Notes: generated by a model from the sequence alone, not told the origin. DNA of 64,000 bases from Lachnospiraceae bacterium (GCA_017521985.1 JAFXAZ010000035.1:625-64624), one strand, 5' to 3'; shown: positions 419 to 11,458, counted from the first letter of the stretch. Numbers and translations are program-made.

Positions 419-2128
419 GTGAAACAGTCGAACAATAAAAAATCCCGTGACGTGACAGCCTTTCTTTATGAGAGACTTTCCCGTGACGATAATCTGGAAG
501 GTGAGAGCTACAGCATAGGCAATCAGAAAAAGCTGCTCACCAAAGTAGCCAAAGAAAAGGGCTACACGAATTTAGTTCATTTTATGGACGATGGTATTTC
601 AGGCGTAACGATGGACCGCCCAGGCTTTGTGGATATGATCCGTCAGCTTGAAGAAGGGCGCGCCGCTGCCGTGTTTGTCAAAGACCTTTCTCGTCTCGGA
701 CGAAACTATATTGAGGTCGGACGCTTGACAGAGGAATTTTTCCCCGAGCATGATATCCGTCTCGTAGCGGTCTCGGACAATATCGACACCGCCGAAGGTG
801 AAAACGAGCTGGCGCCGATCCGCAATCTGTTCAATGAATGGTACGCACGCGATATCAGCAAGAAACGCCGTATCAGCAATAAGATCAAGGGCAACGCAGG
901 CGAACCGATGGGACAGCCTCCCTACGGTTACATGAAGGACCCCGACAATCCGAAACGCTGGATAGTGGATGATGAAGCCGCCCTGGTAGTCAAGAGTATT
1001 TACAGTATGACCCTGGACGGCCTCGGAACGGAGCAGATCGCGGCACAGCTTGAACGGGATGAAATACTTACCCCACGCGCCTATTGGCTGCAGAAGGGCG
1101 TTAAACGCCCAGGAAAGGGCAAGCAGTTACCGCCTACACGGTGGAACAGCTCGACCATTACCAAAATTCTTTCTTTACAAGAATACTGCGGCGATATCCT
1201 CAATTTCAAGACCTACTCTAAATCTTATAAGAACAAGAAACGGATAGATAATGACCGTGAGAATTGGGTCGTTTTCAAGGACGTACACGAACCGATCATT
1301 GACCGCGCCGTATGGGAGCAGGTACAGCAGAAACGAGGAACGAGGCGCAGACGACGCACCAACGATGGAGAGAAAAATATGTTTTCGGGGCTTTTGGTTT
1401 GCGCCGACTGCGGAAACAACCTCCATTACCATTTCAATCAAGGCAATCCCGAGATCAAGTATTTCAACTGTTCCAACTACAAGGGCAACAGAGGGACTTG
1501 TACCTCTACCCATTATGTCCGTGTAGATTTTTTGGAGCAGGTGGTGCTTGGCGAGATCAAGCGGCTGACAAAGTTTGCGAGCCATTATGAGGACGATTTT
1601 GTAAAGGCCGTTATGGGTAGCTCTCAACAGAGTGTGGCGCTCAACCGCAAGCTCAAAGAAAAAGAGCTTGCAGCCTTGCAAGCCCGTGATGAAGAATTGG
1701 ACGGATTGTTTGAGCGCATTTATGAGGACAATGTTTCGGGTAAACTTTCCGATGATCGCTTTTCCAAAATGTCAAGACGATATGAGGACGAGCAAAAGGA
1801 GATATCCGAAAAGATAAAGACCCTCCGCGCTGAAATGGATAAATTGAGCAGTAAAGCCGTAACGGCGGATATGTTCATTTCCACCGTCCGTAAATACACC
1901 AGGGCAAAGGTATTGACGCCGCGAATGCTGAACGAGTTGATTGACCGCATAGAGGTCCATCAGGCGGAGAAGATCGACGGCGAATGGGTCCAGCACCTCA
2001 CCATTCATTACAACTGTGTGGGGGCGATATTCATTCCCGAGGTGTTCCCGCTACCGGTGCCCGAGGTATCCGTAAATACAAGAAAAGGCGTGGTCGTAAA
2101 CTACGCGCCATGCCAAGTCGCCATATAA
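419..2128 (+). CDS. Large serine recombinase (resolvase/invertase N-domain + recombinase domain + zinc ribbon + coiled coil)
   Basis: GTG start preceded by AAAGGAGGA. N-terminal catalytic motif AFLYERLSRDD. Cys-rich zinc ribbon CADCGNNLHY...FNCSNY...CTSTHY. C-terminal coiled coil. Architecture matches TndX/TnpX/phage-type large serine integrases. Confidence 0.9.
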   Translation: MKQSNNKKSRDVTAFLYERLSRDDNLEGESYSIGNQKKLLTKVAKEKGYTNLVHFMDDGISGVTMDRPGFVDMIRQLEEGRAAAVFVKDLSRLGRNYIEVGRLTEEFFPEHDIRLVAVSDNIDTAEGENELAPIRNLFNEWYARDISKKRRISNKIKGNAGEPMGQPPYGYMKDPDNPKRWIVDDEAALVVKSIYSMTLDGLGTEQIAAQLERDEILTPRAYWLQKGVKRPGKGKQLPPTRWNSSTITKILSLQEYCGDILNFKTYSKSYKNKKRIDNDRENWVVFKDVHEPIIDRAVWEQVQQKRGTRRRRRTNDGEKNMFSGLLVCADCGNNLHYHFNQGNPEIKYFNCSNYKGNRGTCTSTHYVRVDFLEQVVLGEIKRLTKFASHYEDDFVKAVMGSSQQSVALNRKLKEKELAALQARDEELDGLFERIYEDNVSGKLSDDRFSKMSRRYEDEQKEISEKIKTLRAEMDKLSSKAVTADMFISTVRKYTRAKVLTPRMLNELIDRIEVHQAEKIDGEWVQHLTIHYNCVGAIFIPEVFPLPVPEVSVNTRKGVVVNYAPCQVAI

Positions 2129-2314: not shown

Positions 2315-3175
2315 CTATACTTCCTCACTTTCACTGTTTTCCTCATCTTCGCTGCTTTCACTGCTTTCAGTACTTGCCTCGCTGCTTTCACTGCTTTCGG
2401 TACTTACCTCGCTGCTTTCACTGCTTTCGGTACTTGCCTCACTGCTTTCACTGCTTTCGGTACTTGCTTCGCTGTCTTCACTGCTTTCGGTACTTGCCTC
2501 GCTGTCTTCACTGCTTTCAGTACTTGCCTCGCTGTCTTCGCTGCTTTCAGTACTTGCTTCGCTGTCTTCGCTGCTTTCGATACTTGCCTCGCTGTTTTCA
2601 CTGCTTTCAGTACTTGCTTCGCTGCTTTCGATACTTGCCTCACTGCTTTCGCTGCTCATCTCGCTAGCTTCACTCTTTACTTCTTTACTAAAATCAAAAA
2701 TATCTTCTAAGGCTAAATTTTCTTCACTTGGAGCAATACCCCAAAATGCTTCCGCTTCAATTTTAAGCTCTTTTTCTTTTGGTACATTTGATAAATAAAA
2801 TTCAAAAGAGTCCTCAGCAATCTGATCTGTATATAATTTTTTTATTTCTACTCCCTCTTCTACATCTGTTATACTTACTACACAATATCCTTGATTTGCT
2901 TTGCTGGATAAGTCGATTTGTACACGATAAGAACATACCTCTGAACTATTTGTATCTATATCATCTATATCCAAACTTAATGTTTGTAACTGCTCCTCCA
3001 TCAATTCAGACGTAACCTTAGTAACTGAATATTCAGCCACTGACACATAAGCCTCTTTTGAAGAATTACTGCTATCTATAAACCATGCCAAACTCATACC
3101 TGCGAGGCTGGATGCGCAAACTAAAATTACTAAAGTAAATATTGGTACCATTAGCATTTTTATTTTCTTACTCAA
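2315..3175 (-). CDS. Secreted TasA/camelysin-like protein with a C-terminal poly-acidic Ser/Glu repeat tail
   Basis: TTG start after GAGGAGGGG. N-terminal TM/signal with SLAWFIDSS (SipW-class signature). The C-terminal ~110 aa consist of (E/D)(A/S)S(T/I)ESSE(S/D)S repeats. Confidence 0.6.
   Translation of the reverse strand: MSKKIKMLMVPIFTLVILVCASSLAGMSLAWFIDSSNSSKEAYVSVAEYSVTKVTSELMEEQLQTLSLDIDDIDTNSSEVCSYRVQIDLSSKANQGYCVVSITDVEEGVEIKKLYTDQIAEDSFEFYLSNVPKEKELKIEAEAFWGIAPSEENLALEDIFDFSKEVKSEASEMSSESSEASIESSEASTESSENSEASIESSEDSEASTESSEDSEASTESSEDSEASTESSEDSEASTESSESSEASTESSESSEVSTESSESSEASTESSESSEDEENSESEEV
2351..2660 (-). repeat. Tandem 30-nt coding repeat (~10 copies) encoding the Ser/Glu-rich tail
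   Basis: The unit GCTGCTTTCACTGCTTTC(A/G)GTACTTGCCTC recurs at 2351, 2381, 2411 ... 2591, with point variants and shortened terminal units. Confidence 0.9.
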
Positions 3176-3818
3176 AACTTATCCCCTCCTCACCTTCAAT
3201 CTGAGTTGCATTCAAATCAAGACTGAATCCAATTTTCAAATCTGAAGCAATATTATTGTAAGCATTCCCTGTGCCCTCTGGCCAAGAGATGCAAATCTCA
3301 AAGGTATCCTCTGCATCTTTTACCAAAACAAGGTTTGTCCCGATGACATCACTAACTTCTGCAATTTCTGCAATTGTTTTTTCTATCACACTTTCACCTG
3401 AAGTTACCTTCACGCATAAAATTTCTTTTAAAGCATCTACTATGTCACTTTGCTCATTTTCTTCGTTAAATTCATAATCGTAATTCAAACGAAGTTCATA
3501 TTTTAACGGTAAAGCTCCAACATTTTTAACAATAATGTTTTCTGTAGCCTGCACACCCGGTTGCCACATAGATGCATTTGTCGCATCATCGCAATTATAA
3601 AGTTCTGTAAAAAGTTTTGTCTCACTTGTTACTTTATCCTCTGGTGTAGCACTACGATAAAATTCTATATCAAGTTCACCCGTTTTAATCTGATTATTTC
3701 TAGAAGAAACCCTGCTTTCAAACCAAGCATATGTGATTCCAAACAGCATAATACAACAGAGAAATAAAGCTATTAAACTACTCAACAATGCATTCCATCT
3801 TATTTTCTTGTCCGCCAT
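3168..3818 (-). CDS. TasA/camelysin-family secreted protein with SipW-type signal peptide
   Basis: ATG at 3818 preceded by AAGAGGA. Signature GITYAWFESRVSSRNNQIKTGELDIEF. C-terminal motif TGNAYNN...LKIGFSLDLNATQ. Confidence 0.65.
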   Translation of the reverse strand: MADKKIRWNALLSSLIALFLCCIMLFGITYAWFESRVSSRNNQIKTGELDIEFYRSATPEDKVTSETKLFTELYNCDDATNASMWQPGVQATENIIVKNVGALPLKYELRLNYDYEFNEENEQSDIVDALKEILCVKVTSGESVIEKTIAEIAEVSDVIGTNLVLVKDAEDTFEICISWPEGTGNAYNNIASDLKIGFSLDLNATQIEGEEGISFE

Positions 3819-4494
3819 TTTCAATTTCCTCTTTTTCTCCAGACTGCTCTTTTAAAGTTTGCAATTCCGCAATCAGTCTCTGAGTTTCTTTTCGTTCTGC
3901 TTCTAATTGTTGCCTTTCCAACTGGATTTCCTTCACTTGTTCTATACGATAAGCTTTGAAGTTTTTAGCACAAATCAATACCTGATATCCTATTAAAAAA
4001 AGAAATGGTATCAAAATACAACAAATATATCCGGGTATTGTTTTTAGGAACTGAAAGAAAACACCGATTTTAGGAATTCTCCACTGATACTTACCTATTA
4101 TCATGTCATAAGTTACGACCATATCATCATCAATATTATTCGTTGTTCCATATGTAACGTATCCTGGTTGTCCCATTTCGTTTGTTGCAGACTTCCTAAT
4201 TTTATGTGTAATTACCATTCCATAGTTCTCTTCGTTTCTAGCTTCATATGAAATAATATCGCCTTCTTTTAAAGATGAAGGTTCTACTAACTTGGTAAAT
4301 ACCACATCTCCTGCATTAAAATCTGTAGCACTCATAGAATCAGACAGAACAATAAAGGCTTTGTATCCAAAAAAACTTCTGTTATTTTGATCCAGTGTCG
4401 TTAAAGAGATTATTGTAAAAATCATCATAACCACTGCTATGATAAACACCCCCCAAAACAGTGCATCCTTTACACTCTTCCATGCTTTTTCCAT
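3778..4494 (-). CDS. sipW: Signal peptidase I, SipW (ER/archaeal) type, with an extra C-terminal TM segment and coiled-coil tail
   Basis: RBS AAGGAGGAGG. N-terminal TM. Catalytic Ser in VLSDSM and His in VITHKI. C-terminal extension ...ERQQLEAERKETQRLIAELQTLKEQ. Confidence 0.8.
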   Translation of the reverse strand: MEKAWKSVKDALFWGVFIIAVVMMIFTIISLTTLDQNNRSFFGYKAFIVLSDSMSATDFNAGDVVFTKLVEPSSLKEGDIISYEARNEENYGMVITHKIRKSATNEMGQPGYVTYGTTNNIDDDMVVTYDMIIGKYQWRIPKIGVFFQFLKTIPGYICCILIPFLFLIGYQVLICAKNFKAYRIEQVKEIQLERQQLEAERKETQRLIAELQTLKEQSGEKEEIENGGQENKMECIVE

Positions 4495-4531: not shown

Positions 4532-5284
4532 CTATAAAGCTTCTAACTCACCTCTTATTGCGCTATCGTCTTCCATCTTTTCATGAAATATTTTTTGCTT
4601 ATTTTCAAGCTTCATAAATTCCCGGTAATATCTTATTCCAAATTCCCGTAGAGATTTCGAATTAAAATGCAAGTTATCAGGATTAGAAGTTAAACCTTCT
4701 GCTGAAACAAAACCTGTCATCTCATTATTCATACTTATGCTTTTTAATGCTTCATTCACATATACATAATTCATGGAAACGACATTTGACTTGTAATTTT
4801 TAAGATAATCTCCCAATCCACCTACTAAAAATGGCACATCGTACAACTCTAGATCTCTTCTGAATGCTGCCATCATTTTTTCAAATCTTTCCTGATATGT
4901 TGAGTACCTGTCCGGCTCACAATCAGCTTCTCCCTGATGCCACAAAACTCCAGCTATAGTGGATGTTCTTGAGGCAAGCCTTGATTGATAAATGGCATGA
5001 TCATATAATAAACTTCCCTCTTTCCACTGCTCCAATGATGTTCCACCATCCGCACACGGAATCAAACCTACACACACGTCATGTTCTTTTGCATAAGCCT
5101 CTGCAAAACTTTCTGCAAGACTAATCCCCGAAAAAGAACGATCACAATTTACAGGTACATACATCGTTTGCCATCTTCCGTTCCTAAGAACTTTAAGCCT
5201 ATCACTCTTGATTAGCTCCACTTCGTTCACAAAACCTCGACCAGCCATATTAGACTGTCCAATCATCAGAAATGAGTGAATCAT
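4532..5284 (-). CDS. SASA/CE6-like carbohydrate O-acetylesterase (probable acetyl-xylan or sialate-type esterase), no signal peptide
   Basis: The start MIHSFLMIGQSNMAGRG carries the GQSNM motif of the sialate-O-acetylesterase / CE6 family. Start chosen at 5284, just downstream of the upstream gene's stop (5298); the longer ORF to 5383 would overlap that gene. Confidence 0.7.
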   Translation of the reverse strand: MIHSFLMIGQSNMAGRGFVNEVELIKSDRLKVLRNGRWQTMYVPVNCDRSFSGISLAESFAEAYAKEHDVCVGLIPCADGGTSLEQWKEGSLLYDHAIYQSRLASRTSTIAGVLWHQGEADCEPDRYSTYQERFEKMMAAFRRDLELYDVPFLVGGLGDYLKNYKSNVVSMNYVYVNEALKSISMNNEMTGFVSAEGLTSNPDNLHFNSKSLREFGIRYYREFMKLENKQKIFHEKMEDDSAIRGELEAL

Positions 5285-5297
5285 TTTATTCCGCCCT

Positions 5298-5849
5298 TCA
5301 ATCATTAAATTCTTTGTTTGGATTATTTTTAGTCTGTACTGCATCTGCATACATGTTAAAATACAAACTATGATCCTGTACAACGTTGCCTGCTTCCTTA
5401 GGGAAATAAATAGTCATTACTAAGTCCCTTTTTTCATTTATCTCCAATAAATCATCAGCTGCTCCTGCATTACTCTTTGTCAGTTCAGAAGCCGTTCCCT
5501 GATAGAGTATCTTTGCGCCATCAGATAAAGTGATTTCCAGTACATCTGAAAGCCCACCATCTATATCATCCAGATATAGCCTATAATAAACAGCCCAGTT
5601 GCTATTATTTTCTATAAAGAAATTTTTTCGAACAGTCATTCCCGGCTCGAAAAGAAATTCATCTTCTTCAATAACGGGTTTGCCGTCATTTAAATTAATA
5701 TCAATAATTCCGGTTTGAAAAATGTTCTCTTTGACAGACACGCTATCATAAAACAAAGCATAGCTTGAAACACAAAGACAAATTAAAAGAAACATAGCAA
5801 AAACTAAGCTTGTAGCCATTTTATTCAAATTATTCTTTTTATTGTACAT
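5298..5849 (-). CDS. TasA/camelysin-family secreted protein with SipW-type signal peptide
   Basis: ATG at 5849 preceded by AAGGGAG. Signature SSYALFYDSVSVKENIFQTGIIDINL. C-terminal AGNVVQDHSLYFNMYADAVQ. Confidence 0.55.
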   Translation of the reverse strand: MYNKKNNLNKMATSLVFAMFLLICLCVSSYALFYDSVSVKENIFQTGIIDINLNDGKPVIEEDEFLFEPGMTVRKNFFIENNSNWAVYYRLYLDDIDGGLSDVLEITLSDGAKILYQGTASELTKSNAGAADDLLEINEKRDLVMTIYFPKEAGNVVQDHSLYFNMYADAVQTKNNPNKEFND

Positions 5850-6468
5850 TTGTTTTCTCCCTTCTACCATGTCTCAACCCAAAATATACTAGTGCATAAA
5901 AAGCAAATCCCATCGCAACAATCCAGAAATACATATTAGTATTATCTCCAGTCAGAGTACTTGGCAAATAATCTGTTGAATCATCTTGTTCAGGAGTGAC
6001 CTCCATATCCTCGACTTCTTCGCCCTCTACAAACCAAATAAAATCTGCTGTCAGTTTTTTGTTTTGATACTCATTACCCACACTGGTATCCAGCCATACA
6101 CTAATCTCATAATGTACGTCTAGCGTAGTTTTTTCTGTAGCTTTAAGTTCATAATCAAGTGAAGAAGGCATCTCCTTCATCGTACCGTTATAAAGTACTT
6201 GTTCGCCTTCTTTAACCTTTACCTGCACATACAAAACTTCTGCAAGCATTTCACTGCCTTCATGAATATCTGTATCAAATTGCAATGTAATGTCCTCATC
6301 ATATGTAACCTTGACACAAAAGTTTTCAACAATTTTATCACCCGGAAACATGTTTTCCGCATTAAACGGTACACTATCACTGGTAATGTCAGTCGCTTTT
6401 ACCTCTACTACATTTATCGCAAAAAATATCACCATTACGGCAATCAAATTTTTTAAAACTTTTTTCAT
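5839..6468 (-). CDS. TasA/camelysin-fold secreted protein with a C-terminal membrane/wall anchor
   Basis: Ordinary signal peptide. Motifs MFPGDKIVENF...VGNEYQNKKLTADFIWF. C-terminus is YLPSTLTGDNTNMYFWIVAMGFAFYALVYFGLRHGRREK, i.e. a sorting-signal-like motif, hydrophobic helix and basic tail. Confidence 0.5.
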   Translation of the reverse strand: MKKVLKNLIAVMVIFFAINVVEVKATDITSDSVPFNAENMFPGDKIVENFCVKVTYDEDITLQFDTDIHEGSEMLAEVLYVQVKVKEGEQVLYNGTMKEMPSSLDYELKATEKTTLDVHYEISVWLDTSVGNEYQNKKLTADFIWFVEGEEVEDMEVTPEQDDSTDYLPSTLTGDNTNMYFWIVAMGFAFYALVYFGLRHGRREKTNVQ

Positions 6469-6504
6469 ATTCTATCATTCCGTTATACTCTTTAAAAAAG
6501 GTGC

Positions 6505-6538
6505 TGTCACACCGCAGAAAATAATCTCCAGTGTGACA
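6505..6538 (-). terminator. Hairpin + T-run after the GH10 gene (possible partial terminator/attenuator inside the operon)
   Basis: TGTCACAC (6505-6512) pairs with GTGTGACA (6531-6538). On the minus strand the hairpin is followed by TTTTTT. Confidence 0.5.
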
Positions 6539-6565: not shown

Positions 6566-9181
6566 TTAATCGATTGTAATTTCTAATACATTTTCATATC
6601 CCTTGTGATATGCACAAGAAACGGTTTTACTATCGCCGTCTACCGTTACAGTAACATCATAATCTCCGTAGAAACCACGAACTGTAGCAATACCGGAAGC
6701 ATTAGTAGTAGCCTTTGCATCTCTAGTCCACCACTTATTGTATACAAGGTCAGCAAATACCTGACCAGCCGGCTTCAAATTCCAGTTACCATCATAGATA
6801 GGAGAATATGTTGCAAAATTACTGCCATCCCAGAAGCCCCACATCAAGAAACCATCCATACTTTCTTCTGCAAAGCATGAAATCATAACATCTCTCATAT
6901 AGTTAGCCTGTAATGCCTGATCTGGAATAGAACATGAGAATTCAGTAATCTTTAATCTCTTACCATAATCTGCCTCAAGCTTATCATAGAATGCCATAAG
7001 TTCTGTAGGCATCTTAAATGCTGCAATATTATCATAGTGAGACTGGATACCAAGACCATCATAGTCTACATCCAACTCTTCAAACAAATCTAAGTACTCG
7101 ATATACTCAGGTTTCCATACATCAGATGCTTCGTTGTAGTAAAGCATTGTGTCTTCACCAGCAATTGCTCTTGCCATTTCGAACCATTTTACAAATAACT
7201 CTGCACCATGTGCTTTTTCAAATACATTATTTGTAACAATTTCATTTACAACATCCCAATCCACCATATCCGGGAATGTGCCAATAATACTTTCAAAATG
7301 ATCTTCACAATATTCAAGCAATTGTTCTTTATCGTCAATACATGCTGTGCCATTGTCTTTAAATAATCTTTCAGGCATTAAATATGTAGTACCATCGGAA
7401 GCAAATGCTCTCTGCCAAATCAATGGATGACCTCTGAAGTACTTTGCACCTGCTGTTTTAGCTGCTTCTACCTGTGCTGCTGCTTCATCCGGATGTGCTT
7501 CAAATGGTGCCCACTTCATGATATGTTCTGCTACACCGGTATTGAATAAAGCACCATATTTTTCCTGTGTTGTGGCATCAGTAATTGAAGAATTCACAGA
7601 AGTACCAAACTGGAATTCATGTTCAAACATATCAAATTCTACTTCTGCATTTGGAATCACGTTTCCGTTAGCATCCTTTACAACAACTGTGAAATCACCT
7701 TTTCTAATTTCTTCGATTCTTTCGTTTGCTGCTGTTCTCCATTCTGCATCCTTTGCTAATTCAGTATATGTACTTGCACTAGATGTTGACGGTAAATCAT
7801 CAACTGTTAATGTAGTTTTATGAGTGAAGTTGATAATTTCAAATCCACCAATTTCAACTGTACCTAAGTTTGAACATGCTCTTATACCGATAGAAGTTGC
7901 TTTTGGATTAGATCTAACTGCTTTATAAGGCACGAATATTATTGACCATTCATCATCGATAGTATAATTTAAGAACACATCTTTTTTATAACTTCCTGAT
8001 GGCTGCTCAATCTGAATATAAACTTCGTTTGCACCATCACCACCGTCATTCGTACTTCTTGCCCAAAATGCACAAAGCATAATGGAATTTATTGCAGGAT
8101 CTTCCGTTAAGTTTGGATGCTTAGGTTTTGCAGTTGTTTTAACAACATAGTCTGATGTTTTTGCAGGAACAGTGGTACAATTAATACGAAGTACTCTGTT
8201 AAATGCACCTTCCGGTCCTTCAAGTGCTACTACCTCATCTGTACCATATGCACTTGTATCTGTTTCTCTACTAGCTAATGGAATAATACCATCTAAAAAC
8301 TCATCTGCTGTGGTTACGACCGTACCCTGCGCCTTAACCTGATTGTATAATGCAAGCTGCTCTTCTGCGGATAGGCCTTCAAAGTGCATAATATCATTCA
8401 AGTCACTGCTTAATGTAAACTGAGTAGGTACATTTCTATGTACTGTACTTACAAGTTCTGCCATACCGACTTTCTGACTTCCCTCATCATTATATGTAGC
8501 ATCTTTGTCATACTGATTGCCAAAGCTATCTTCTTCTTTTGCAAGCTGTCCTGCTACAACCTGAACATCAATATCAAGTGTTTTGCCCTGATAATCATTT
8601 CCGGCATCTTCGTCCATATGTACAGCTAATGCGAAGCAATCATTGCTTCCTTCTTCAGCAAGCTGTCCATTCTGTGCTGCTGTAATAGTACCTCTTGGTA
8701 CATCTCCCACCTCAACACCGTCCATTGCTGCAAGAGTTTCCCAATCTGTGATATTTGCTTGTGCAAATGACTCTGCTGTTGCACCGTTTACAATAGCGTA
8801 ATCCAACACACTTGCCAGGTTAATCTTGTCTTCCGTATCTGTATCTTTTACAGTCAGTACAATATTGTACTTTAACGCAAGACTTCCCATATTCTTTACC
8901 TGAAGGAATACAATTTCTGTCTTGCCTGGTTCCCAGCTTACACCGTTACCAGTACTTTCGCTAAAAATATCTCCTTCTCCGTCAGCAATGCTAACGTAAC
9001 CATTACCATCCTGCTTGTCCATTAATAAATCTACCTTCAAGGTACCTGCCTGAATACGGTTGCCTGTGTTAGATACATTACTTGTGAACCACGCCATGGT
9101 GCTTCCAAGAAACATTGAAACACATAGTATTAATGATAGAATACTACTTAACAATGCTTTCTTTTTGTTTACTTTTTTCAT
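6566..9181 (-). CDS. 871-aa fusion: SipW-type signal peptide + TasA/camelysin-like domain + CBM4_9/22-like module + GH10 endo-1,4-beta-xylanase + C-terminal Ig-like domain
   Basis: N-terminus LGSTMAWFTSNVSNTGNRIQAGTLKVDL ... AGNDYQGKTLDIDVQVVAGQ. GH10 motifs GHPLIWQ, WDVVNE (acid/base Glu) and LKITEFS (nucleophile Glu). Confidence 0.8.
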   Translation of the reverse strand: MKKVNKKKALLSSILSLILCVSMFLGSTMAWFTSNVSNTGNRIQAGTLKVDLLMDKQDGNGYVSIADGEGDIFSESTGNGVSWEPGKTEIVFLQVKNMGSLALKYNIVLTVKDTDTEDKINLASVLDYAIVNGATAESFAQANITDWETLAAMDGVEVGDVPRGTITAAQNGQLAEEGSNDCFALAVHMDEDAGNDYQGKTLDIDVQVVAGQLAKEEDSFGNQYDKDATYNDEGSQKVGMAELVSTVHRNVPTQFTLSSDLNDIMHFEGLSAEEQLALYNQVKAQGTVVTTADEFLDGIIPLASRETDTSAYGTDEVVALEGPEGAFNRVLRINCTTVPAKTSDYVVKTTAKPKHPNLTEDPAINSIMLCAFWARSTNDGGDGANEVYIQIEQPSGSYKKDVFLNYTIDDEWSIIFVPYKAVRSNPKATSIGIRACSNLGTVEIGGFEIINFTHKTTLTVDDLPSTSSASTYTELAKDAEWRTAANERIEEIRKGDFTVVVKDANGNVIPNAEVEFDMFEHEFQFGTSVNSSITDATTQEKYGALFNTGVAEHIMKWAPFEAHPDEAAAQVEAAKTAGAKYFRGHPLIWQRAFASDGTTYLMPERLFKDNGTACIDDKEQLLEYCEDHFESIIGTFPDMVDWDVVNEIVTNNVFEKAHGAELFVKWFEMARAIAGEDTMLYYNEASDVWKPEYIEYLDLFEELDVDYDGLGIQSHYDNIAAFKMPTELMAFYDKLEADYGKRLKITEFSCSIPDQALQANYMRDVMISCFAEESMDGFLMWGFWDGSNFATYSPIYDGNWNLKPAGQVFADLVYNKWWTRDAKATTNASGIATVRGFYGDYDVTVTVDGDSKTVSCAYHKGYENVLEITID

Positions 9182-9320
9182 TGTCTTTCATCCTTTCTTA
9201 ATAAATATAATTTTCGTAACCTATCCATTACATTTTTATTAGAACCTACATGTCTAATTATTACAATGACGTTTTCGTTAACGCATATACGCTTTTTATA
9301 TTTAGGTTAATATCAAAAAA

Positions 9321-9343
9321 ATCCGCGGATTTCTCCACGGATT
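9321..9343 (-). terminator. Rho-independent terminator downstream of the GH130 gene (bidirectional shape)
   Basis: ATCCGCGGA-TTTC-TCCACGGAT hairpin flanked by an A-run and a T-run. The minus strand reads hairpin then TTTTTTT. Confidence 0.6.
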
Positions 9344-9447
9344 TTTAAATACAGGAAACATTATCTTAATATTAGGAAAAGCCCGCTTTTACGAGCCTCT
9401 TCTGAAAGGGATATATATGATTATACTTGCAGCACAAAAAAAGAAAT

Positions 9448-10452
9448 CTAAAGTCTACCCAAACAAAGGTCTACCAAATCCTGAACCTTTGCCGTTGCCA
9501 TACATTCTACGGTGTCATTCAAACCATAATATATTTTTGCCGTACCATCTTCTTCTGCAATAAGACCGCCCGGGAAAATAACATTGGTGCGGAAGCCTTC
9601 GTTTTCTTCATAATCTCCTTCCGGTGCAATCAATGGCTCTTTATACATGCCAATTACTTTAGAAGGATTTTCTAAATCCAACAACATTACACCTACACAA
9701 TAACGTTTCTGCCACTTTGGTTCCCATCCATTTTTTTCGCGCTCCGTGTCTTTATCCACGGTGTGGAATAATACCAGCCATCCCTCTTTTGTCTTAATCG
9801 GAGGTGCTCCAGGACCGATTTTATCATTTGCATATGGAACATGCTCCACGCCTAAAAGAAGCTCAGCCTCGCCCCAATATCTTAAATCAGGAGACTTAGA
9901 CATCCAAATGTCAAAACGGTCTTTTCCCCCTCTGGAATATACCGGAAATGGACGCTCTAAACGTACATATTTTCCATCCACTTTTTCCGGGAACAATACC
10001 ATATTTCGATTATCCGGTACGGTCAGAGATAATACTTCCACTGTTTTGAAGTCGTCCGTCACTGCTACTCCGCCTCTTACACCATGATTGGTATCCACAG
10101 CAAAGCAAAGATAACAACGGTCATCGATTACCGTTAATCGTGGGTCATACACTCGCTTTACATCCGGGTCATTCATATCCTCAACCGTTAGAAATGGCTT
10201 ATCTTGTACGTCCCAATGAATACCATCCTCTGAAAAAGCAATACCAATTACACACTTTCCAAATCGGCTGATACCATTAAACTGTGAATCATTTCTAAAA
10301 ACCATGACATACTTGCCACGAAATTTTGTGACGCCGGCATTAAAAATACACTCTGCATCATAAGGAATGTTTTTTTTACTTAATACCGGTTTCCCACCCC
10401 GATAACGTGTAATTACAGGGCTTGATTTTAATTCCGGAAACATTTTTCCCAT
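9448..10452 (-). CDS. GH130 family glycoside phosphorylase (beta-1,4-mannoside/mannooligosaccharide phosphorylase-like)
   Basis: Typical GH130 blocks: IFNAGVTKFRGKYVMVFR, YDPRL, VLFPEKVDGKYVRLERPF, GPGAPPIKT. Confidence 0.8.
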   Translation of the reverse strand: MGKMFPELKSSPVITRYRGGKPVLSKKNIPYDAECIFNAGVTKFRGKYVMVFRNDSQFNGISRFGKCVIGIAFSEDGIHWDVQDKPFLTVEDMNDPDVKRVYDPRLTVIDDRCYLCFAVDTNHGVRGGVAVTDDFKTVEVLSLTVPDNRNMVLFPEKVDGKYVRLERPFPVYSRGGKDRFDIWMSKSPDLRYWGEAELLLGVEHVPYANDKIGPGAPPIKTKEGWLVLFHTVDKDTEREKNGWEPKWQKRYCVGVMLLDLENPSKVIGMYKEPLIAPEGDYEENEGFRTNVIFPGGLIAEEDGTAKIYYGLNDTVECMATAKVQDLVDLCLGRL

Positions 10453-10639: not shown

Positions 10640-11458
10640 ATGAAAACCAATGTACGACTCATAAAGAAAAAGCAAGATTACAAACAGGAAATCTTTTTTG
10701 AACGAAAAAATCTAAACATATCCAGCACCGTTCACTGGCATGATTTTTATGAAATAGATATTATTTTGTCCGGAAGCGGGACAACGATGATAAACGGCAA
10801 AGACCACCTGCTGAGCGAAGGAACTATGAGTTTCTTGACTCCATCCGATTTTCACGATATAACGTCTTCCGGTTTAAGTATTTTTAATATTCAATTTTCA
10901 GAAGATTGTGTGGACTATGAAATCTTAAACGCATTGATTCATACGAATAGCAGAATATGTCATTTGGATCAAGCCCAAACAGAAAGTATATGCAAGCTAT
11001 GTGCTCTGCTTGAAACAGCGCACATGAACACTGCATACCAGAAGATATATTATCAGAAAATATTAGAAAGTATTTTTTTGATTTTTTTGCAGAATGTACA
11101 CGCCACTGGCGAAAAATCTACACAGACAGAGCCGGATATCATTCAGCAGATTATTGTTTACCTAAATATGCACTTTATGGAAAATCCATTATTAAAGGAA
11201 ATTGCCGAGCAGTTTCACCTGAACGAAAACTATCTTTGTATGCTGTTCAAAGAACAAATCGGTGAAAATTACAAAAGTTATCTGCGCAGCCTCAAACTAA
11301 ATCACGCAGAAAAACTTATTATATACACCAATATGCCCATCACTGAAATTGCTTTCAGCAGCGGGTATAATACACTTTCGCATTTTAACAGGGAGTTTAA
11401 AAGTATGTTTCATATTACTCCTTTGGAAATGAGAAAGCAGGCGAATTTTTCCCAATAA
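10640..11458 (+). CDS. AraC-family transcriptional regulator (cupin sensor + HTH)
   Basis: N-terminal cupin region HWHDFYEIDIIL. C-terminal AraC HTH ...ITEIAFSSGYNTLSHFNREFK. Divergent from the GH130 gene. Confidence 0.85.
   Translation: MKTNVRLIKKKQDYKQEIFFERKNLNISSTVHWHDFYEIDIILSGSGTTMINGKDHLLSEGTMSFLTPSDFHDITSSGLSIFNIQFSEDCVDYEILNALIHTNSRICHLDQAQTESICKLCALLETAHMNTAYQKIYYQKILESIFLIFLQNVHATGEKSTQTEPDIIQQIIVYLNMHFMENPLLKEIAEQFHLNENYLCMLFKEQIGENYKSYLRSLKLNHAEKLIIYTNMPITEIAFSSGYNTLSHFNREFKSMFHITPLEMRKQANFSQ

Follow-up and report, generated by a model that had tools for sequence, protein, structure and literature searches.

The DNA analyzed here, a 64,000-nucleotide stretch of a Lachnospiraceae bacterium genome (GCA_017521985.1, JAFXAZ010000035.1:625-64624; hereafter, the window), carries on its minus strand a gene for a secreted modular xylanase whose N-terminal 230 residues are a unit of the TasA superfamily. 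From the N-terminus to the C-terminus, the predicted fusion protein consists of a SipW-type signal peptide, a conserved N-terminal stretch, a beta-sandwich, a disordered linker, a module with the CBM4/22 fold (CBM, carbohydrate-binding module) and a GH10 domain, a domain architecture that we regard as close to certain (Table 1). By analogy with TasA, the protein may be a subunit of a cell-wall-anchored fiber displaying the xylanase, a reading for which the balance tips only slightly in favor.

The gene is a single open reading frame (ORF) of 871 codons spanning positions 6566-9181, with the ATG at 9181 and a Shine-Dalgarno-like AAGGA located 11 nt 5' of the start, and the plus-strand frame of the same interval contains many stops. 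The initial annotation of this DNA had placed one coding region here and had divided the product into TasA-like, CBM4_9/22-like and GH10 domains followed by a C-terminal tail. The coding region was confirmed and assigned to the minus strand, all four domain calls held, and the sequence landmarks cited for them (the AWFTS region, GNDYQGKTLDIDVQVVAGQ, WDVVNE and ITEFS) were all found by translation. No dockerin family is among the Pfam matches of the fusion protein, even at E<=0.1, and neither a cohesin nor an SLH domain was detected in the Pfam search. The protein also carries no C-terminal sorting signal, ending in ...KGYENVLEITID without a hydrophobic helix.

To place the architecture among its relatives, the fusion protein was compared by BLAST with the 120 best database relatives. 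Approximately 110 of these align to residues 1 to ~230 only, with 41-60% identity, and 6 proteins (P0003-P0008) align to ~233-871 only, with a sharp break between the N-only and C-only homologs at residue ~232. The whole architecture, in the same domain order, is present only in P0001 (96% identity) and P0002 (58%), both of which are intact and were recovered from independent metagenome contigs originating from different samples; P0002 (locus L003) comes from a metagenome-assembled genome (MAG) of a Lachnospiraceae bacterium from roe deer colon. The fusion is therefore real and has outlasted sequence divergence, yet it is rare. In place of the TasA-like N-terminal module (hereafter, N-module), P0003-P0008 contain a Cu_amine_oxidN1 domain behind an ordinary signal peptide, followed by the same CBM-fold and GH10 modules; thus, the N-terminal anchoring module has been swapped in evolution.

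The signal peptide of the N-module ends in ...LGSTMA30|W31FTS and, by analogy with the TWA|AF site of TasA, cleavage is predicted after A30. The Pfam family Peptidase_M73/camelysin (PF12389) matches residues 7-51 with 22.5 bits, which is exactly the curated cut-off, and the NCBIfam model of the SipW-dependent-type signal (TIGR04088) aligns to residues 14-48. The latter model is matched by 29 of the 34 close homologs of the N-module (best E=3.5e-7), and Pfam M73 is matched through the first ~50 residues in 45 of 78 further family members. Across 133 homologs, G26, T28, A30 and W31 are invariant. Within this set of non-identical modules, conservation peaks at residues 31-50 (top-residue frequency 0.74, entropy 1.0 bit), compared with 0.37-0.43 and 2.1-2.4 bits in the sandwich body, and residues Q212, E216, D218, F220, Y224 and D225 of the C-terminal tail, at and shortly behind the end of GNDYQGKTLDIDVQVVAGQ (residues 194-212), are invariant or nearly so.

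In the AlphaFold2 (AF2) model of the N-module, built with 34 homologs, the signal-peptide helix is followed by a beta-sandwich; the mean predicted local distance difference test score (pLDDT) is 82, and the sandwich itself mostly scores 86-95. By contrast with this core, residues 30-49 have low pLDDT and no secondary structure in the monomer model, and the invariant C-terminal tail scores 57-68. A Foldseek search of the PDB with this model ranked the TasA fiber first (8aur_A, E=5.8e-6, aligned over all 233 target residues) and the archaeal TasA-like bundling pilin AbpA second (7ueg_A, E=1.5e-4), every other match having E>1e-3. Together with the signal/camelysin motif and with the sipW and stand-alone TasA-like genes nearby (see below), the structural matches bear out the proposal that residues ~1-230 are TasA-like. 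Virginiamycin lyase, which surfaced in a profile search of PDB sequences, was discarded as a relative of the N-module, the matches being at chance level (E about 2.6).

The donor strand of TasA is its N-terminal strand (residues 28-38), and a second interface between subunits is formed by a C-terminal segment (PMC9674648). The two conserved termini of the N-module, which are its most conserved parts yet are modeled with low confidence in the monomer, favor an inter-subunit role, because the subunit interfaces of TasA are formed by exactly the same two termini (PMC9674648). Furthermore, N41 is found in 133 of 133 N-modules, E84 in 132 of 133 and K104 in 84% (the span from N41 to K104 lies at about 8870-9061 of the window). 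N41 is located in the N-terminal strand and is followed by E84 and then K104, the order of the N35/E56/K74 triad that gives rise to an intermolecular isopeptide bond in Clostridium perfringens BsaA (BsaA preprint). Since the three residues are kept in the order of the BsaA triad, the fiber might be covalently locked, and a BsaA-type N-E-K isopeptide lock might operate in the N-module family. Each of the two stand-alone paralogs encoded downstream (218 aa and 190 aa) lacks one member of the triad, as we read the hhalign alignments.

The middle of the protein is silent in sequence searches: Pfam has no match in residues 233-480, even at E<=10 (PF02018, CBM_4_9, included), a profile search of PDB sequences with residues 233-473 found no CBM, and the middle module used alone as a homolog-search query returned two fragments. 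The CBM4/22 fold was identified only after structure prediction. The AF2 model of residues 233-520, built from 8 sequences, has a pLDDT of 71 overall and of 80-94 across most of the CBM-fold core. It consists of a disordered linker at residues 233-268 (pLDDT <50), then a helix and then a beta-jelly-roll, with the N-module and the CBM fold separated by roughly 55 residues that are largely disordered. The jelly-roll best matches CBM4-2 of the Rhodothermus marinus xylanase (2y6j, E=3.9e-8, target-normalized TM-score 0.68-0.70), with further Foldseek matches to CBM1 of BiXyn10A (4qpw), CBM22 of Xyn10C (4xup, listed as CBM22) and CBM22 of Xyn10B (2w5f). The model thus supports the fold of xylan-binding CBM4/CBM22 modules, and the CBM4_9/22-like assignment of the initial annotation stands at the level of fold, without a Pfam match.

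The catalytic domain, in contrast to the middle module, is recognized by Pfam (PF00331, residues 518-809, 95.4 bits against a cut-off of 22.1, E=4.9e-27), and, among solved structures, residues 474-846 are closest to XynA of Bacillus sp. KW1 (7d88, E=1.8e-28). WDVVNE is located at residues 642-647 and ITEFS at 745-749; E647 and E747 align with two positions that are glutamates in 7d88 and alanines in the inactive mutant 7d89. The Pfam match and this alignment substantiate the earlier assignment of both catalytic glutamates. The segments on either side of the barrel, residues 474-517 and 810-846, can be aligned with the N- and C-terminal regions of XynA itself, so that the small C-terminal tail noted previously has its counterpart in 7d88; residues 474-517 also give weak Pfam matches to Big_1 and CarboxypepD_reg. 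Endo-beta-1,4-xylanase activity of the GH10 domain is predicted from these similarities. XynA accepts arabinose-decorated xylan (PMC13444322).

The fusion gene is the first gene of a co-oriented block, regarded as one transcription unit, running to position 2315, because the strong terminator-like hairpin at 9346-9317 separates it from the GH130 gene. Downstream genes of the block encode proteins related to the N-module. The 209-aa protein ends in STLTGD, a hydrophobic helix and an RHGRREK tail, that is, a sortase-type sorting signal, and, once signals are removed, hhalign matches its family to that of the N-module over the region bounded by the WEPGK and GNEYQ strands (probability 89.7%, E=1.8e-6). 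The FPGDK segment, the counterpart of WEPGK in this alignment, has only ~14 residues ahead of it, so that the 209-aa protein has no donor-strand region. With a core and a wall-sorting signal but without a donor strand, it therefore fits an acceptor-only terminator and anchor. The 218-aa protein is a full-length homolog of the N-module; it scores 25 bits against the BsaA family model TIGR04090, below threshold. The 238-aa signal peptidase scores 74.7 bits against the SipW-Bacillus model, below the equivalog cut-off. The 286-aa protein is a possible TapA-like accessory; its homologs in other loci also have low-complexity tails, and such proteins with AWF signals recur in related loci.

To assess the generality of this arrangement, we searched 1.84 billion cluster representatives (clusters at 50% identity) for the N-module family using HMMER and obtained at least 3,845 clusters at E<=1e-30 and 8,433 at E<=1e-3. 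In 150 of the 150 matches listed, the module begins within the first ~50 residues, nearly always at residue 1-2. The hosts are nearly all uncultured Clostridia of the gut or rumen, namely, Lachnospiraceae, Oscillospiraceae, Acutalibacteraceae and MAGs assigned to 'Eubacteriales'. Species-representative genomes contain at least 538 loci with the N-module, and the locus statistics given here refer to the best 80 of them, many of the locus contigs being incomplete. Complete modules occur in 143 genes of these 80 loci; the 127 complete genes among them encode proteins with a median length of 653 aa and a maximum of 1,921 aa, with fewer than 400 aa in only 9 of them; the module is thus nearly always accompanied by cargo. 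Homologs of sipW are present in 36 of the 80 loci. Anchor-type proteins with a Sec signal, a TasA-like core, a (S/P/T)PxTGD motif, a transmembrane (TM) segment and a basic tail were found in 20 of the 80, and 18 of these loci also carry sipW. The (S/P/T)PxTGD motif resembles the SrtB motif of Clostridioides difficile.

Genes with cargo, the region behind the N-module, often form tandem arrays (noted in L017, L007, L082, L037, L050 and L053), with up to 7 in one locus (L017). The arrays are co-oriented with one or two sipW paralogs and with small TasA-like genes encoding proteins of 180-220 aa. Giant cargo proteins of 1,585-1,921 aa with the same N-module were also observed in related loci. Two, sometimes three, divergent sipW paralogs are present in L021, L023, L030, L034, L036, L045-L047, L051, L055, L062, L069 and L082; where they are paired, one matches the SipW of the window with E ~1e-70 and the other with E ~1e-15, a hint that different classes of subunits are served by peptidases of their own.

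Among 100 cargo regions scanned against Pfam, only ~30 matches to any family were obtained, and most of the regions are thus without a Pfam match. The families matched are mainly BspA-type leucine-rich repeats (LRR), right-handed beta-helix/pectate-lyase-like, GLUG, CBM4_9, F5/8C and lyase-like domains. GH10 cargo is rare, being confined in this set to the P0002 lineage. The initial annotation had described the fusion as unusual; this applies to GH10, which is rarely fused in this way, but not to the combination of a TasA-like module with cargo, which is common in uncultured gut Clostridia.

From these observations, a mechanism can be outlined. The SipW peptidase of the operon would cleave after A30, and the freed strand, W31-K49, would enter the beta-sandwich of a neighboring TasA-like subunit, whereas the sandwich of the fusion protein would itself take a strand from another subunit, that is, donor-strand exchange as in TasA. 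The fusion protein would thereby become one subunit of a mixed fiber with the stand-alone 218-aa and 190-aa proteins. The 209-aa protein would terminate this fiber and tie it to the cell wall, and the 286-aa protein, with its SipW signal and acidic tail, may nucleate it in the manner of TapA, which is thought to donate the first strand to the TasA fiber (PMC9674648). The CBM and GH10 modules would project from the fiber on the linker, keeping xylan hydrolysis near the cell. Of this scheme, the domain identities, the presence of sipW, the homology of the paralogs, the sorting signal of the 209-aa protein and the conservation pattern are observed, whereas we infer that SipW cuts after A30, that donor strands are exchanged and in which order the subunits follow one another in the fiber. 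In line with such a scheme, the C. perfringens BsaA preprint reports that BsaA/TasA operons often hold several paralogs along with LPxTG proteins and sortases, and speculates on heteropolymers and on the LPXTG-bearing BsaB as the fiber anchor.

Several observations weigh against a TasA-type fiber anchored to the wall. The PF12389 match is restricted to profile positions 3-46 of 196, the TIGR04088 score of 15.5-17.5 bits is below the 19-bit cut-off, and the Foldseek TM-score against 8aur_A is modest (0.41). A profile of 34 N-modules run against all PDB sequences found no TasA chains; hence, what links the N-module to TasA is its N-terminal motif, its fold and its genomic context, and it is by these three that the module is filed in the TasA superfamily, not as a full-length member of the Pfam family. 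Furthermore, the sorting motif of the 209-aa protein is the variant STLTGD, and no sortase gene was seen in the window, a simple motif scan of ORFs >=70 aa for TLxTC having yielded none there and candidates in only a few related loci; the sortase, if any, would be encoded elsewhere. Finally, a bulky cargo of 640 aa on every subunit might hinder homopolymerization.

The strongest competing explanation is that the N-module is a docking or capping unit which, without self-polymerization, attaches only once, by donating its N-terminal strand at the tip or end of a fiber or to the 209-aa acceptor, and so anchors a single enzyme to the surface. In favor of this reading, the 209-aa protein has the look of an obligate acceptor, which by itself could retain one cargo protein at the wall; the cargo far exceeds the module in size, and the cargo of the family is mostly adhesin-like (LRR_5, beta-helix), as expected for tip proteins. 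However, the N-module is not merely a donor strand but retains a whole sandwich, whose core and tail are conserved, the operon also encodes stand-alone subunits with donor strands, and the up to 7 cargo genes of a single locus would compete for a single acceptor. We consider a docking role unlikely, although deserving serious attention.

A second competing explanation dispenses with the fiber: the N-module would serve as a carrier specific to SipW in export or folding, or would bind the matrix, and the xylanase would be released in soluble form, perhaps by cleavage of the linker. Residues 233-268 are predicted to be disordered and would be open to proteases, and the CBM-GH10 cargo works in other contexts, given that P0003-P0008 carry it without the N-module and with Cu_amine_oxidN1 instead. 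Yet a plain Sec signal would do for export, and a fold of 200 residues with invariant termini has been kept across thousands of proteins with unrelated cargo. Moreover, a carrier does not account for the conserved proximity of genes for stand-alone TasA-like subunits and for anchors with sorting signals, and we regard it as improbable. That the gene is a chimeric assembly artifact or a recent non-functional fusion, as the sharp breakpoint with separate homologs for each half might suggest, is effectively refuted by P0002/L003 and was rejected, the frame being open over its whole length, the catalytic residues conserved and the full-length architecture intact in two independent homologs. A subunit of a wall-anchored TasA-type fiber thus remains our preferred, if narrowly preferred, reading of the fusion protein.

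Table 1. Features of the fusion gene and of its operon, in the order of transcription (coordinates refer to the window).
Feature	Coordinates	Strand	Basis
Terminator-like hairpin, 13-bp stem + T run, 5' of fusion gene and 3' of GH130 gene	9317..9346	-	
Fusion gene, 871 aa: TasA-like module + CBM4/22-like module + GH10 xylanase	6566..9181	-	ORF list, translation, full-length homologs P0001/P0002
SipW-type signal peptide, residues 1-30 (MKKVNKKK...LGSTMA)	9092..9181	-	Pfam M73, TIGR04088, invariant residues
Candidate donor strand, residues 31-49 (WFTSNVSNTGNRIQAGTLK)	9035..9091	-	Conservation, low pLDDT, correspondence to TasA donor strand
TasA-like beta-sandwich core, residues 50-213	8543..9034	-	AF2, Foldseek, hhalign to 218-aa paralog
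Invariant tail motif E216-x-D218-S-F220-x-x-x-Y224-D225 + disordered linker, residues 214-270	8372..8542	-	Invariant columns, pLDDT, homolog break point
CBM4/CBM22-fold module, residues 272-452	7826..8368	-	AF2 model + Foldseek; no Pfam match
N-terminal flank of XynA-type GH10 (helix + small beta segment), residues 474-517	7631..7762	-	Aligned to 7d88 residues 37-80
GH10 catalytic (beta/alpha)8 domain, residues 518-809	6755..7630	-	Pfam PF00331, PDB 7d88
Predicted acid/base E647	7241-7243 (codon)	-	Alignment to 7d88/7d89
Predicted nucleophile E747	6941-6943 (codon)	-	Alignment to 7d88/7d89
C-terminal beta tail, residues 810-871	6569..6754	-	Aligned to 7d88 C-terminal part, up to residue 398
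Candidate fiber anchor, 209 aa: Sec signal, TasA-like core, STLTGD + TM + basic tail	5839..6468	-	hhalign, sorting signal
Stand-alone TasA-like protein, 190 aa, SipW-type signal	5298..5870	-	Pfam M73 26.8 bits; hhalign to N-module alignment 95%, E=2.3e-8
SASA/SGNH carbohydrate esterase, no signal peptide, probable start MIEGRN...	4532..5305	-	PF03629, E=2.9e-51
SipW-type (archaeal-type) signal peptidase I, 238 aa	3778..4494	-	TIGR02228 77.3 bits vs cut-off 51.85
Stand-alone TasA-like protein, 218 aa, SipW-type signal	3168..3824	-	hhalign vs N-module 99.3%, E=2.4e-20, 198 columns
286-aa protein: SipW-type AWF signal, small domain, acidic Ser/Glu-rich repeat tail	2315..3175	-	hhalign in signal/AWF region only

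Other features of the operon were observed alongside those discussed above. A weak terminator-like hairpin on the minus strand (6500-6513, 5-bp stem + T run) lies directly 3' of the xylanase gene; attenuated read-through at this site could give the cargo gene a different dosage from that of the downstream fiber genes. The SASA/SGNH esterase, presumably cytoplasmic and sugar-deacetylating, is encoded between the TasA-like genes and sipW, a placement that is kept in locus L001, where the predicted gene product has 257 aa. In the SipW of the window, the C-terminal ~70 residues past the peptidase domain form a long charged, coiled-coil-like extension (…QLERQQLEAERKETQRLIAELQTLKEQSGEKEE…). The acidic tail of the 286-aa protein is encoded by a DNA tandem repeat at 2349-2629 with a period of 30 or 90 nt (~9 or 3 copies, 89-91% matches), and a plus-strand ORF of 190 aa at 2138-2710 was rejected as a mirror artifact of this repeat.

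The L001 contig matches the window from 9411 down to 2178 with 97.8% DNA identity and then diverges. Past the divergence point, L001 encodes a GDSL esterase, a GH30 enzyme and an ABC permease, whereas the window carries a large serine recombinase gene (419-2128, plus strand) in a stretch with 48% GC, compared with 37% in the operon, which suggests a mobile-element insertion or rearrangement just downstream of the operon. On the other side of the fusion gene, a mannoside-type GH130 phosphorylase gene (9448-10452, minus strand) forms its own transcription unit upstream, followed by a divergently encoded AraC-type regulator (10640-11458). The remainder of the window (11472-64000) is ordinary chromosome, with ispF, holA, comEC, gerM, a histidine kinase, arginine biosynthesis genes and a Mur ligase.

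As known from the biofilms of Bacillus and Clostridium, TasA-type fibers are structural scaffolds with single-domain subunits. The parts of the fusion protein and its operon are likewise of known kinds, namely, a TasA-superfamily unit, a SipW peptidase, a CBM4/22 fold and a GH10 domain; what appears to be undescribed is their combination and the large family of cargo-carrying TasA-like modules clustered with a sorting-signal anchor. We tentatively suggest, as a possibility that we would not yet call probable, that uncultured gut and rumen Clostridia possess an undescribed class of Gram-positive fibers, built from SipW-processed, donor-strand-exchanged, interchangeable subunits that mostly bear C-terminal cargo, tied to the wall by a sortase-sorted acceptor and perhaps covalently locked, which would amount to a cellulosome analog free of cohesin and dockerin. 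If so, the cargo of these fibers would comprise adhesin-like LRR and beta-helix domains, CBMs, lyase-like domains and the GH10 xylanase. Such fibers would give Gram-positive bacteria a new means of presenting catalytic and binding functions away from the cell, and gut and rumen Clostridia without cellulosomes a new route to cell-associated degradation of plant fiber. The family is large, has hardly any annotation and comes almost exclusively from uncultured organisms, so that a working model would become available for thousands of 'hypothetical' proteins.

The closest known systems are TasA, CalY and BsaA with SipW (Bacillus subtilis, Bacillus cereus and C. perfringens, respectively; PF12389, IPR022121). 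The fusion protein has in common with them the SipW-type signal with its A|(A/W)F motif, the conserved N-terminal strand and a sandwich that best matches the TasA fiber, as well as the adjacency to sipW and to paralogous subunits, and the accessory protein with a similar N-terminus recalls TapA (PMC9674648). However, TasA, CalY and BsaA are single-domain proteins of ~200-260 aa, whereas the fusion protein adds a 640-aa CBM + GH10 cargo, and its similarity to the Pfam model stops at the first ~45 positions. In addition, the operon described here includes an anchor subunit with a sorting signal, whereas the TasA system is regarded as sortase-independent, and polymerization of the fusion protein is a prediction. 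In the open-access papers searched, we found no description of natural TasA-enzyme fusions or cargo-bearing subunits, an absence that is no proof. AbpA of Pyrobaculum calidifontis (7ueg) and the TasA-like archaeal filaments, which provide the second-best structural match of the N-module, consist of donor-strand-complemented beta-sandwiches processed by an archaeal-type signal peptidase (PMC9245690); unlike the fusion protein, AbpA is archaeal, single-domain and devoid of enzyme cargo.

At the other end of the protein, XynA of Bacillus sp. KW1 (7d88, 7d89, 9rhv) has the same barrel flanks and both catalytic glutamates. With 428 aa, it is, by length and alignment, without the TasA-like and CBM4/22-fold modules, and the likeness is limited to the catalytic region and its flanks. 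Cellulosomes and SLH or LPXTG anchoring would have the same outcome as that proposed here, with polysaccharide-degrading enzymes held in a cell-attached multi-protein structure. Cellulosomes, however, are assembled on a dockerin-cohesin scaffold, whereas the fusion protein would attach by strand insertion, a different assembly chemistry.

Chaperone-usher pili, which are built by donor-strand exchange and include two-domain tip adhesins (FimH) and terminator subunits (PapH), follow a common logic, in which a pilin is joined to a functional domain and an anchor subunit is unable to extend the chain. They differ in being Gram-negative, dependent on a chaperone and an usher and unrelated in sequence, and their functional domain is N-terminal, whereas the cargo described here is C-terminal. 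Lastly, Huang et al. reportedly described in 2019, in Nat Chem Biol, enzymes fused to the C-terminus of TasA and displayed on the fibers of B. subtilis as living materials. Given that such engineered fusions display enzymes on fibers, a C-terminal enzyme on TasA is workable. Those fusions are synthetic, whereas the fusion gene described here is natural and a member of a large family, and it would thus represent a natural precedent for engineered TasA-enzyme living materials.

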